DNA from: Dictyostelium discoideum
Lineage: Eukaryota
Assembly: GCA_000004695.1 (NCBI GenBank)
Contig: CM000151.3
Coordinates: 1,920,001 to 1,984,000 of the forward strand
Length of the DNA stretch: 64,000 nt
Direction of reading: 5' to 3'
A program made the translations under genes and the position numbers. Position 1 is the stretch's first letter, and every line of letters begins with the position of its first letter. A model generated the notes under the pieces. The model saw nothing but the letters and a program-made list of their open reading frames with translations. It made no database searches and was not told where the DNA came from. Shown one piece after another: positions 1-63,155 of the stretch.

Positions 1-2422
1 AAGAAGGTAATAATTTTGAGACATCTGATCCAAGGTCATGAACTACAATCTTTTTTTGAGGTGAGTCATATGACTTTCTAAAAATTTCAATCATCTTATC
101 AGTTTGAGATGTGATTTTAATGAAATAATAGTCAATTGATTTTGAAGATAATTTTTGTAAAAGTTTTTCTGGAACCAAACCACTTGGGTCACCATCTGGA
201 TATGAATCAACACAATTATGATATTTTTTGCCGTGGCATGGTGCATCGCCTACATGGACAACAAGTTTAGTATGAGTTGGTTTCCACGATAGGTTATTTA
301 CTTGTAAAAAAGCACCTGTAATATCTTCTGGAGTATCACCACCACCTGTTGGAACTGCTTCATTAATTTTGGAAGCAAGATATCCCATATCCGTTGTAAA
401 TGGTACAACCTCAAATCTATTGGAATCAGTAATATCACGATAACCTATGAAACTTGCATTCAATTCCAAACCTACATATGAGCTGGCTAATAATCCAGTT
501 AATGAAATAATTTTTTCTTTACTTTCTTTAATCCATGAGCCCATACTACCAGTGCAATCCATCATGAGGCAAAGTTGTACCATTGGGGGTTTATTCTTTT
601 CTTGACGTAATCTATTTCTTCTTAATGATTCTGCTTCATCGAGTGCAAAGTCGTAAGAATGTCTAATTTCCTTTCCCGATTTTACATGTAATGCACAAAC
701 TTCTATCTCTGTTGATGCAATTTTAAAGTTACATCAATACGGTTTTCATTGACTGGTGCACCTACATTTGGAATATTAACATACAATTCACCAATAAATT
801 GAACACCTGGGTCAGTCGTATATGACATTGTTTGCATATACGATGAGAAAATGGAAATTTCAATGGCTTTTTGATCTTGTGAAGTTGGAACATATGACCT
901 TGTAAACACTTCATCACAACCAACCATTTGATTTGCATGAACAAAAACATCACAAACATTTTGGCAATGTGGAATATCTCTGATTTTAATTATTGATTTT
1001 CCAGTATGTGGTTTACTTGGTGTAACTACTTCTGTAATCTCTGTTGCATAACTTTTGGTTTGTTTTCTTGTTGAAATTGTATTTGGATTTAATCCAAATC
1101 TTGTTGCACCCATAACGACTGATAGACCAGCCTTATTTGGAATGATGAATTTTGCACCAGTAAATTCTAATTCACTTTTAATATGTTCTTGCAAATCTTT
1201 ATTTTCATTGAAACCGCCAATTAAAAAAATATAATCTAATTTTTTAATATCTGAATTTGATTTGATTTCACTTTTTATTGAATCGGTGATACTTTGGAAT
1301 AAAGGTTTGAAAAATGAAATAAATAAATCCTGTGGGAAAATCAATTTCTCTCTTGCTGATGAATATCTTAAACTGAAACCACTTTTTGAATTAAATTCTT
1401 GAATTTTTTTATTTAACCATTTTTCATCTTCATGAAATAATGCCATTGGAAAAAATTCTAAACTGATGATATGATTTGAATCTCTATTATAAGTTTTTTT
1501 TAAGAATCCAAATTTATCAAACAAAGATTGTAAGTGGGGCTTTTTTTTCTTTTTTCAATAACATCATCTCCAAATAACTTTTTAAGAAATAAAATAAAAT
1601 TATTATTAACATAACTTGATCCAAAATCACCACCAAATGAACGAGAAATTGATTTTAATTTTCCTCCTTCCAATTGTTCATAACAAATGATATCGGATGT
1701 TCCACCACCATTATCGATAACCATAAACTTTTAACCAACTTGAACAGAGTAACCAGTAGTTTTTTCAAAAATACATTGTAATGCACCAGCTTCTGGTTCA
1801 TATGAAAAGATGAGAGACTCTAAGAATATTTTAAATAAATTGTTAATAAATGAAAATTTGATTTTATTTAATAAATTAATTTTTACTTACCTTTATCATC
1901 TTTTGAACAAAGTCCTGCAGTGTCTGCACAACTTCTCATTACTTGTTTACTAGAGTCATCCCAAATTGCAGGGATTGTTAATACCCATTGAACTTCGGAT
2001 TCATAAACTTTTTTGGAAGATATACTATTTACCTTATTCATTGCAACAATTTTTAAATATCTTAAGGATTCAGTAATGAGTTCTTGAATTGTTGCACTAT
2101 GATTACCACAAACTGATTTAATTGGTTGGCCTCTAGTTTTTGGGTTAAATAGATGCATTTTATAAGAGGAGTAAAGCGAATGTTTTTCAGTACCTTCATC
2201 ATCATTGTTTGAAAAGTAATCTCTAGCCTCGTAACCAAATGCAACAAATTTTTTTTTTTCATCCAACACAATTTGCGTCAAAGTTTTTACATTTATTGAA
2301 CATGACCCACCCCAAGTTTCAGTGCAATAAACTGTCTCTGAAATATCTTGGGGGAAAACAAATGCAAACCCAGAACATGAAGTACCAAAATCAATTGCAA
2401 TTACAACACTTTTACCTTTCAT
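1..2422 (-). pseudogene. Hsp70-like (HSPA12-type actin-fold ATPase) fused to a C-terminal von Willebrand factor A (vWA) domain. The 5' end is complete (ATG at 2422) and the 3' end runs past the window start. The reading frame is broken three times.
   Basis: Minus-strand exon 1 (2422..1891) encodes MKGKSVVIAIDFGTSCSGFAF, the Hsp70/HSPA12 phosphate-1 motif. A GTAAGT...AG intron lies at 1890..1820. Exon 2 continues SLIFSYEPEAGALQCIF...VQVG, hits an in-frame TAA (plus 1731-1733), then resumes FMVIDNGGGTSDI (Hsp70 phosphate-2 / connect motif). The frame switches within 1503-1527, next to an A8/T8 homopolymer. It switches again within 703-738, with no GT..AG boundary available. Downstream of that (about 700..1) the frame encodes a clear vWA domain: LCLMMDCTGSMGSW (DxTxS MIDAS motif), GGGDTPEDI and LVVHVGDAPCHG. 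Confidence 0.5.
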
Positions 2423-2809
2423 TGTTTACTATTTTTGAAAATTAAAAAATTGTTTTAAATAAATCCAATTTATATTTATATTTACTTTAAAAAAAAAAAT
2501 TAATTTTTTTTTTAAATTTTTAAATTTTGAGATAATATTTTTAAAAAATTTAATTTTTTTTTTTTTTTTTTTTTTTTTTTTTTTTTTTTTGAAAACAAAT
2601 ATTAATCCACACAAAAAAAAAAAAAAAAGAAAAACAAAAACAGATAAATTTCAGATGGAGAGTAATACTTTAGATAAATAAAACATATATAAATATTTAT
2701 ATATAACTAAAAAAAAAAAAAAAAAAAAAAAAAAAAAAAAAAAAACCTATAAAATAATAAAAGAAAAGTATTCATTAATTTAAATCAGTTCTTTTTTTTT
2801 TTTTTTGTA

Positions 2810-3150
2810 TCCTTAAGTTTAAATTAATTTTTTTTGATCAAAATAAAAATTAGATGTTTGAAAACTTATATAAATAAGTTTTTTTTTACAACTTTTTACA
2901 ATTTAATTTTTTTTCTCAAATCAAGATACAAATTTGTTTTTTTTTCACTTTTTACAATTTAATTTTTTTTTTTTTTTTTTAATTTTTTGAATCAAAGATT
3001 GAAATTAGATCTTGGACCACTTAAATTAATAAGTTTTTTTTTAATTTTGAAATTTAATTTTTTTCACTGTTACAATTCAAATTTTTTTTCACTTTTGCAA
3101 TTTAATTTTTTTTTTTTTCACTTAAGTGAAAAATAAATTTATTTTTTGTT
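2810..3150. repeat. Tandemly duplicated ~150-bp unit carrying five copies of a ~27-bp motif (consensus cacttttTacaatttaattttttttt) in the divergent intergenic region between the gene starting at 2422 (minus) and the gene starting at 3213 (plus).
   Basis: Motif copies begin at about 2889, 2946, 3065, 3090 and 3119. The flanking segments '...gatcaaaataaaaattagat...taaataagttttttttt' (2835-2888) and '...gaatcaaagattgaaattagat...aattaataagttttttttt' (2985-3040) are clearly related, so the whole unit is duplicated. Confidence 0.6.
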
Positions 3151-3212
3151 TTTTTTCCATAAACCAATATAAAAATTTTTAATAAATACAAATTTTAAAG
3201 AATCCAATAAAA

Positions 3213-61256: not shown

Positions 61257-61330
61257 AAAAATTAGGTGTTGAAATTTTTCAAAAAAATGTCCCACTAATC
61301 CAAAACACCATTTTCCGACACCTAATTTTT
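61257..61330. other. Imperfect inverted repeat (15-nt arms aaaaattaggtgttg / cgacacctaattttt with 1 mismatch, 44-nt spacer). It lies between the 3' end of the 61430 gene and the promoter of the NmrA-like gene.
   Basis: Direct reading of 61257-61271 against the reverse complement of 61316-61330. Confidence 0.6.
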
Positions 61331-61429
61331 TATTCACATTTTTAAAAATGTTCTAAAAATAAAGTTTTTTTTTTATTTTTATTTTTCATATAATTTAAAT
61401 ATATTTATATTTTAAAAAGATTATTATTT

Positions 61430-63155
61430 TTATTTTATTTTATTTTTTTCTAATTTTTGTTTTTTAAGTGGTTGATCTTTAATTTCAGCATTACTGGCTG
61501 ATGTAGTTTCAGTTGGGGTTGTACTTGAGGTACTTGGTGCAGTACTAGTATTAGTAGTTGAAGTTGATGTTGTATCATTTTGTTGCTCTTGTTTTTGTTG
61601 TTGCTCTTGATGTGGTTGTTGTGGTTGTTGTGGTTGTTGTGGTTGTTGTGGTTGTTGTGGTTGTTGTTGTGTTTGTTGCTCTTGTTGTGGTTGTTGCTCT
61701 TGTTGTGGTTGTTGCTCTTGTTTCTCTTGTTGTAGTTGTTGTGGTTGTTGTGGTTGTTGTTGTGGTTGCTCTTGTTGTTGTGGTTGTTGTGGTTGTTGTG
61801 GTTGTTGTTGTGGTTATTGTTGTGGTTGTTGTTGTGGTTGTTGTTGTGTTTGTTGTTCTTTATTACCTTGATTTAATTTAATTGGTTTATATGGAGTAGT
61901 TGGAGTTAAAATTATACAAGCTCTATGATATAATTTTTCATATTCACTACCTTCATTACCGGTTTTCTCAGTAACTAACTTTTTATAAGATGGAGTACCT
62001 TTTAATGAGCCAACAACTACTTCAACAGGTACCTACCACCTATTTGACCACCCCCAAATTACACATTTCTCCACAATAAATGGAATAAGATACACATTCC
62101 TTAGTTTCACCCAAGTCAGAACTAGGAATATCACTTACACAAGCACGATCTTCATATAAAGTACCTTCCTCAGTGATATGAATAATACCTAATGTAACTT
62201 GAACTGATAATTTTGATTTAATTGAATCGAAAAAACTTGTAAGTACTATATCCCTATTTTTCAATTTCTTGAATCCAAAACTAGCAGGTGGATAACTCTG
62301 ATCAAGTACTAAGAAAAGTGATGAATTTATTTGATTATTTCTTTGTTTTTTTTCAAAATATTCAATAATACCCTCCTCAATAGTTGGTATAATTTTATTT
62401 GATTTAATAATTGATCCAATATCTATAGTTGTTGATGTGGAAGAATCAGATTTAATTAAATTATAAACTAAACATATACGTGTTCCCTCTGTAATTTCTT
62501 TAACTTCATGTTCGCAATCTGCATAGAATGCACAATATTTAATTGTTTTATTGGCACTTTCACCACTACCACTACCAACACCACTAATATTACTACTATC
62601 ATCCATTGATACTTTTACTTCATTACCTGAATGTCTAATATATAAATCACCACCTAAATGAGATGAAGGTAAATTTACAACTAATGTACCAAACATTTTA
62701 TCTTCTTTTTCTGTATCTTTATGTGATAAAAAGAATGATCCTTTATTATAAATTAATAGTTTATATAGGTTTGCTTTAACTTTATCCTTTTTAGCTAACC
62801 CTAAATCTGAGCATACACTTGGTAAAATATATTCTGAAACTATTTTATTGATTATAGTTGGTGTTTTTAATATTTTTGGATCCATTTGCCATACTTTTCT
62901 AACATTAGTATCTACAATGGTTTGTTCACCTTTACCAAATGGTGCTAGTTCACATTTTTCAATTATTTTTTCAATTGATTCATAAGTAACTGGAAATTAT
63001 AATTTAGGACCTTTCTTAACTTCAATATTTGGTATAACTTCACGAACAATTGAACCACTTGAATAATATGAACCAAATGATTCAATATTTTCAGGACTTT
63101 TTGAAACTTTTTGATTCAATTCTATATCACTTAATTCACTTAATTTTGAAATCAT
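61430..63155 (-). CDS. 2-oxoglutarate/Fe(II)-dependent dioxygenase-like protein with a long poly-Gln/Pro-Gln C-terminal extension. As sequenced, the frame contains an in-frame TAA (plus 62997..62999) and a frame discontinuity at 62033..62062.
   Basis: Starts MISKLSELSDIELNQK at 63155. Core: SFFLSHKDTEKEDKMFGTLVVNLPSSHLGGDLYIRH...KYCAFYADCEHEVKEITEGTRICLVYNL, i.e. an HxD...H...R facial-triad pattern typical of Fe/2OG oxygenases. After ...CGEMC the protein continues in frame only if the 30-nt segment gtaatttgggggtggtcaaataggtggtag is skipped: VPVEVVVGSLKGTPSYKKLVTEK...(QQP)n...TTNTSTAPSTSS...LEKNKIK*, with the stop at 61430-61432. Confidence 0.5.

Follow-up and report, generated by a model that had tools for sequence, protein, structure and literature searches.

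In-frame TAA codons in a 64-kb Dictyostelium discoideum window: very probably gene decay and a reference-private change rather than recoding

Background

In-frame TAA codons within open frames call several described systems to mind. In ciliates UAA and UAG have been reassigned to Gln, and engineered suppressor tRNAs provide another case of altered stop decoding. Read-through is known to be favored by certain motifs after the stop, namely CARYYA and CUAG. Unitary pseudogenes arise where one lineage loses a single-copy gene through point lesions; they keep their synteny and have intact orthologues in sister lineages; they carry nonsense codons together with 1-bp frameshifts, and their annotation is often split or force-spliced. 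Finally, there are the errors of the 2002/2005 Sanger assembly of strain AX4, the reference of Dictyostelium discoideum. Which of these systems accounts for in-frame TAA codons in the reference? Here the question is addressed for 64,000 nucleotides of chromosome 2 of D. discoideum AX4 (assembly GCA_000004695.1, contig CM000151.3, positions 1,920,001 to 1,984,000 of the forward strand), hereafter the window, in which G+C content varies between 16 and 28% and introns are short and of the GTAAGT...AG type. An earlier note on this DNA drew attention to TAA codons at 1731-1733 (minus strand), 42029-42031 (plus strand) and 62997-62999 (minus strand), all of which are indeed present and in frame. We call them sites 1, 2 and 3. 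Site 1 lies in a gene for an Hsp70-12A-like ATPase with a von Willebrand A domain (Hsp70/vWA), site 2 in DDB_G0272692, and site 3 in a gene for a 2-oxoglutarate-Fe(II) (2OG) oxygenase. Taken together, the evidence makes it very probable that sites 1 and 3 mark two pseudogenes, that site 2 is a reference error or a mutation, and that no recoding is involved.

Comparison sequences

Syntenic orthologous loci were taken from recent de novo assemblies of related isolates. The nearest is GCA_054883475.1 (locus tag ACTFIT), a near-identical assembly, 99.7% identical to the window, which we refer to as the sister strain. It belongs to a project in which ten isolates were assembled de novo from Nanopore and Illumina reads (PMC12745789), and it supplied the loci L001 (2OG region), L005 (site-2 region) and L006 (Hsp70 region). 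L003 comes from a divergent D. discoideum isolate, while L002 and L007 come from D. cf. discoideum (L007 from GCA_054859205.1).

Two decayed genes

The features of the gene at site 1 are as follows.

1..2422, minus strand: decayed gene for an Hsp70-12A-like ATPase with von Willebrand A domain, recognized from translations and intact syntenic orthologues
1820-1890, minus strand: sole intron of this gene, 71 nt
1731..1733, minus strand: site 1, in-frame TAA, ancestral GAA (Glu), change G>T, from the DNA alignment with L003
1530..1545, minus strand: frameshift 1, a 1-bp deletion at about 1538/1539 beside a poly-A/C run, placement approximate, from the indel against L003
715..726, minus strand: frameshift 2, a 1-bp deletion at about 720/721, AAAATTTG to AAAATTG, from the indel against L003

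At site 1 the window reads GGT TAA AAG and L003 reads GGT GAA AAG. The codon stands just before the conserved VIDNGGGT motif of the ATPase (the Hsp70 phosphate-binding motif), and in other homologues the position is occupied by Glu or Gln. The gene crosses the left edge of the window, so that about 14 codons and the stop fall outside. It has three lesions, the TAA and two 1-bp deletions, with both frame changes downstream of the TAA. The orthologue in L003 is intact: it encodes 798 aa, has a single 71-nt intron and the same flanking genes, and is 92-96% identical to the window at the DNA level. Intact syntenic orthologues of 798 aa are represented by P0121 and P0168, and further homologues by P0122, P0124 and P0127.

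The gene at site 3 is damaged in a similar way, and its features are as follows.

61431..63154, minus strand: decayed 2OG-Fe(II) oxygenase gene (PF13640), from the Pfam match, homologues and DNA alignment with L002
62997..62999, minus strand: site 3, in-frame TAA, ancestral CAA (Gln), change C>T, from the DNA alignment with L002
62031..62056, minus strand: 1-bp deletions at 62055/62056 and at 62031/62032, separated by about 24 nt, from the alignment with L002
61814..61816, minus strand: fourth in-frame TAA, CAA>TAA, within a CAA/CCA (Gln/Pro) repeat; L002 has CAA

Here the window has AAA TTA TAA TTT where L002 has AAA TTA CAA TTT. The homologue P0001 reads GPKLQFPVT across the site, and more distant homologues carry Ser. 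The two deletions change the frame twice across ...CGEMCN / GGGQIGG / VPVEVVVGSLKG..., and the conserved C-terminal tail stays in frame past the fourth TAA, which gives four lesions for this gene. The orthologue in L002 is syntenic, with the same flanking epimerase, adh_short and DSPc genes.

Are these lesions real? The sister strain carries every one of them with identical bases: the TAA codons of sites 1 and 3, the frameshifts of both genes and the fourth TAA. A 30-mer spanning the site-1 TAA, a 31-mer over frameshift 1 and a 29-mer over frameshift 2 are all found verbatim in L006, and the whole 2OG gene with its four lesions is identical in L001. Since the lesions recur in an independent Nanopore and Illumina assembly, they are real and not artefacts. 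Both genes are therefore best described, as far as their sequences tell, as young unitary pseudogenes of the NC4-derived lineage, and loss of function is predicted for both. In such a scenario each gene would have taken a nonsense codon plus two 1-bp deletions, with a second nonsense codon in the oxygenase, and a full-length product would require three or four independent recoding events per mRNA. The in-frame TAAs would then be ordinary loss-of-function point changes in dispensable genes, or sequence error, and not recoding signals, in a window that uses the standard genetic code and terminates chiefly at TAA.

This changes the picture given by the earlier note in several respects. Its count of three internal nonsense codons was incomplete, since it lacked the TAA at 61814-61816; accordingly, one in-frame TAA per gene holds for Hsp70/vWA and DDB_G0272692 and fails for the 2OG gene, which has two. 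The frame does look coding on both sides of each stop, as had been claimed, but each of the genes at sites 1 and 3 is broken further by two 1-bp frameshifts. These four frameshifts and the fourth TAA, which had been overlooked, are the strongest evidence against read-through. Nor is there one pattern shared by the three sites: sites 1 and 3 belong to apparently genuine pseudogenes, whereas site 2 is a reference error or a mutation private to AX3/AX4. Among the origins that had been offered, nonsense alleles in dispensable genes agree with sites 1 and 3, while artefact is excluded there and is probable at site 2. A common T-to-A change does not fit, because G became T at sites 1 and 2, and C became T at site 3 and at the fourth TAA.

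Some further observations concern the history of the two genes. The D. cf. discoideum orthologue of Hsp70/vWA (L007 3001-5078, GCA_054859205.1) has degraded independently: the frame changes at two additional points, a CAA>TAA stop of its own lies at L007 4458-4460, and no match to the intact protein was found in this copy beyond residue 585. The D. citrinum model (P0126, 556 aa) also looks fragmentary. This suggests that the gene may have been lost repeatedly among group-4 dictyostelids. For the 2OG gene, the otherwise intact orthologue in L002 differs from AX4 at its 5' end (L002 10001-10060) by two deletions, of 1 bp and 10 bp, which its annotation covers with a 40-nt "intron"; this copy may be damaged or may start elsewhere. 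Homologues of the oxygenase in dictyostelids have 83%, 41% and 36% identity. Outside this group, the top matches are 2OG-Fe(II) oxygenases from bacteria and metagenomes, several hundred in number, which align over more than 90% of the length at 30-35% identity and include Planctomycetota and Verrucomicrobiota among others; given this phyletic pattern, horizontal transfer might be worth examining.

Site 2: a probable reference error or, alternatively, a laboratory mutation

The situation at site 2 is different, and the features there are as follows.

40673..42949, plus strand: DDB_G0272692, single-exon gene of 758 codons (named family member B in the earlier note), from the AX4 model and orthologues
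42029..42031, plus strand: site 2, in-frame TAA, ancestral GAA (Glu), change G>T, from the sister-strain assembly and all orthologues
41996..42897 (901 bp), plus strand: five AX4-private substitutions, 41996 G>A, 42029 G>T, 42194 G>A, 42501 G>A and 42897 C>T, from a three-way alignment with outgroup polarisation

The AX4 model of DDB_G0272692 (P0166) has 402 aa and ends exactly at the site-2 TAA, which is the only disabling lesion of the gene. In the sister strain (L005) the codon is GAA, and the 708-aa protein P0167 (SSLFEINSNEK) reads straight through it. An intact copy exists in the sister strain and in each of three related lineages. Glu, encoded by GAA, occupies this position in all three orthologues (SSLFE[I/L/S]NSNEK). 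They are the only orthologues found in a database of 5.8 billion proteins, all of them in close relatives, and no Pfam domain scores above threshold, so the gene is a lineage-restricted orphan. The nonsense change is one of five AX4-private changes, each of which alters the protein and falls on a G/C base, in surroundings with a G+C content of about 16%. In each of them the new base equals a flanking base, and four of the five are G:C>A:T at 5'-AG. Gene conversion from a paralogue was considered as a source of the cluster and rejected, as tblastn (E<1e-3) gives no DDB_G0272692 paralogue in the window.

Is this cluster exceptional? Over the roughly 45.7 kb that were compared, AX4 and the sister strain differ at 35 single bases. 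When these were polarised with the more distant assemblies as outgroups, 21 were AX4-private, 4 sister-private and 10 unpolarised (binomial p = 0.0009). Many of the AX4-private differences are clustered in AT-rich spacers. In the comparison of window 30791-64000 with L005 and L001, clusters are found at 35797/35799, 36312/36318/36329, 40349/40352, 43668/43684/43687 and 52882-52976, and the second of these comprises three A>C changes over 18 bp (36312-36329); window 1-12454 has a single SNP (single-nucleotide polymorphism). Most of the 16 AX4-private differences outside DDB_G0272692 are A>C, A>T or T>A changes that lie close together in AT-rich spacers. The 21:4 excess and the clustering suggest that this part of the chromosome 2 reference is relatively error-prone.

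How much true divergence should be expected depends on what the sister strain is. In the assembly project the name D. discoideum is kept for three isolates, AX2-214, CR116C and OT3A, and CR116C and OT3A are called genetically diverged from AX4 (PMC12745789). The other two D. discoideum-labelled assemblies, ACTFIW and ACTFIR, are 4-11% diverged from the window in aligned blocks (88.9-96.3% identity), and therefore ACTFIT should be AX2-214 by elimination. Ax2 and Ax3/4 have independent origins from clone DdB, selected by 1967 (PMC2643946), and the mutation rate measured in D. discoideum is 2.9e-11 per site per generation (PMC3466296). With a shared laboratory ancestor and this rate, true divergence cannot yield 35 SNPs in 45.7 kb. 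Re-sequencing points in the same direction: all re-sequenced AX4 lines had 1,916 of the 1,917 candidate differences in common, and these were ascribed to reference errors or ancestor differences (PMC3466296). Given the 21:4 asymmetry and the clusters in AT-rich spacers, an error of the reference accounts more economically for the whole set of 21 AX4-private differences. Thus the site-2 TAA is probably a base-call error of the 8x Sanger AX4 assembly; a genuine mutation of the AX3/AX4 lineage is possible but rather unlikely, and anything else is quite improbable. Natural polymorphism was provisionally rejected as an explanation, since AX4 and the strain compared with it apparently go back to one laboratory ancestor of the 1960s.

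Three points weigh against the overall reading and should be noticed. First, when amino-acid changes in the three genes were counted in a relative-rate test, none of the genes had evolved faster on the AX4 lineage (counts of 13 vs 20, 12 vs 18 and 7 vs 9), a result that is neutral as to a relaxation of constraint. Without a rate excess the lesions must be recent, and the frame around the stops still looks coding because too little time has passed since inactivation. Second, the identity of GCA_054883475.1 with AX2-214 was reached by elimination and not from an accession-to-strain table. Should it be a wild isolate, the difference at site 2 might reflect natural polymorphism, and the case for a reference error would be weaker. 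Third, the base composition of the five changes in DDB_G0272692, confined to G/C and mostly of the 5'-AG type, fits nitrosoguanidine (NTG) as well.

The last point leads to the rival that survives best, in which the site-2 TAA and its four G:C>A:T neighbors are a genuine mutation cluster of the AX3/AX4 lineage, for example from the nitrosoguanidine treatment by which Ax3 was obtained, so that AX4 has a null allele with no counterpart in Ax2. We consider such a cluster a tentative alternative, and its more specific form, a footprint of Ax3 mutagenesis that left the reference strain with a laboratory-made null allele which Ax2 lacks, is somewhat more doubtful. The ancestral bases are kept in the sister strain and in all outgroups, as a mutation in the AX3/AX4 lineage would have it, and the almost exclusive G>A transitions that NTG causes in Dictyostelium (PMC5052037) match four of the five changes. 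However, the nonsense change itself, at 42029, is a G>T transversion and not of NTG type. Measured NTG loads in Dictyostelium are 13-34 single-nucleotide variants (SNVs) per genome (PMC5052037), and at such loads five within 901 bp require strong local clustering. Moreover, the remaining 16 AX4-private differences resemble base-call errors and cannot come from NTG, whereas error would cover all 21. Between the two we infer a base-call error as the probable source of the site-2 TAA.

Weaker explanations and the choice of stop codon

Could all three TAAs be sequencing or assembly artefacts of the AX4 reference? The excess of AX4-private differences in the window and the reference discrepancies reported by re-sequencing studies would favor this, but GCA_054883475.1 refutes it for sites 1 and 3 and leaves it standing for site 2 only. 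As an explanation of all three sites it is very improbable.

A further question is whether the stops are decoded. It might be supposed that the genes stay partly functional because TAA is read through at a low level, suppressed or reassigned, a tRNA-Leu with a UUA anticodon being one conceivable agent. The frame is coding-like on both sides of each stop, and DDB_G0272692 has no other lesion, as this explanation would expect; a coding look on both sides is, however, just as expected for a recent lesion. The earlier note had found that TTA (Leu) would fit at the three sites. The syntenic orthologues have GAA, GAA and CAA there, and the distant homologues E/Q, E and S, so Leu is refuted at every site. 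The residues replaced at the four TAAs are Glu, Glu, Gln and Gln, never Leu, and no single inserted residue fits them all. The Hsp70/vWA and 2OG genes would each need two frameshift corrections in addition, and with two frameshifts per mRNA read-through cannot rescue either product. TAA is a normal terminator here, ending 9 of the 11 open reading frames (ORFs) examined in the window, and a scan for tRNA genes and suppressors found no tRNA gene in the 64-kb window. The sequences that follow the stops, TAA-AAG-TTT at site 1, TAA-ATA-AAT at site 2 and TAA-TTT-CCA at site 3, do not resemble CARYYA or CUAG. Terminator usage, replaced residues and 3' contexts all speak against reassignment or programmed read-through. 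The earlier note had itself ranked reassignment as least likely, and the terminator usage, the frameshifts and the inconsistent residues bear this out; we regard altered decoding as extremely improbable.

Then why are all the stops TAA? Codon usage was counted in the long ORFs of the window itself (11,427 codons). Among one-step nonsense mutations of these codons, 59% give TAA under a uniform spectrum and 68% under a GC>AT-biased spectrum. The probability that three of three stops are TAA is thus 0.20-0.31, and that four of four are TAA is 0.12-0.21, so the pattern that had seemed noteworthy is within chance. New TAA codons come from CAA, GAA, AAA, TCA and TTA with 11-37% each, TTA giving only 11-19%. 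The uniform choice of stop would be explained by the dominance of CAA, GAA, AAA, TTA and TCA in codon usage, since each is one step from TAA. As an observation beside these, the independent CAA>TAA in the D. cf. discoideum Hsp70/vWA gene makes a fifth case of the TAA rule.

The proposal that the TAAs lie in unrecognised short introns, as assumed by newer gene models such as the sister-strain P0170 (722 aa) and the 500-aa 2OG model, which skip the lesions through introns, is scarcely credible, because the omitted segments are conserved coding sequence in the intact orthologues (the VIDNGGGT, GPKLQFPVT and YSIYCGEM...VVVGSLKG blocks), the Hsp70/vWA orthologues have one 71-nt intron only, and the omitted segments are not AT-rich, unlike the real intron at 1820-1890.

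Consequences for annotation

What do the lesions mean for the gene models? The AX4 annotation treats the Hsp70/vWA gene as two genes, DDB_G0272700 (206 aa, P0169), which terminates exactly at the site-1 TAA, and DDB_G0272917 (487 aa, P0123), which is 100% identical to the window over its length; the second frameshift is spanned with an intron. The two models read as fragments of one gene that is, by its lesions, presumably dead. In the sister strain, P0170 avoids the stop by removing the conserved KFMVIDNGGGTSD ATPase motif as an intron. Gene-count and orthology analyses that use P0169, P0123 or P0170 will be misled. At the 2OG locus no covering AX4 protein was found in the protein database, and the locus is a putative pseudogene with no AX4 protein model. 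The 500-aa model of the newer assembly uses introns past the lesions and must omit about 74 codons. In this way the gene models of the newer assembly mask the lesions behind invented introns. For DDB_G0272692, the 402-aa model is probably the product of a reference error that truncates a gene of 758 codons. A literature search on the identifiers DDB_G0272700, DDB_G0272917 and DDB_G0272692 found no papers.

The results give no support for altered TAA decoding in Dictyostelium; what they describe is routine gene decay and a probable reference error. Their novelty is limited to annotation, namely that two AX4 genes appear to be one pseudogene, that a 2OG pseudogene is unannotated, and that DDB_G0272692 is probably truncated.

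Comparison with known systems

How does the window compare with the systems described at the beginning? The likeness to stop reassignment of the ciliate type, or to suppressor tRNAs, is superficial and consists of in-frame TAA codons in open frames. It differs in that TAA is a normal terminator, that a handful of sites is concerned, that frameshifts accompany the stops, that the aligned residues are inconsistent, and that no suppressor tRNA is seen in the window. Site 2 is closer to the AX4 Sanger-assembly errors: its TAA is private to the reference and has further substitutions of this kind around it, and the high-coverage assembly of a strain with a common laboratory ancestor contradicts it, although the G/C-only spectrum within DDB_G0272692 fits chemical mutagenesis too. 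The gene at site 1 can also be placed among its own relatives, the HSPA12A/B-type family of atypical Hsp70 ATPases with von Willebrand A domain in dictyostelids and other amoebozoans (for example DFA_11474 and CYY_000058). It has the same domain order and the same ATPase motifs as the intact members, with 43-93% identity to them, and differs in that the copy of the AX4 reference and GCA_054883475.1 is broken at three places. With unitary pseudogenes, the Hsp70/vWA and 2OG genes share the conserved synteny, the intact orthologues in sister lineages, the combination of nonsense codons and 1-bp frameshifts, and the split or force-spliced models; they differ in being very young, with no detectable excess of amino-acid divergence on the AX4 lineage.

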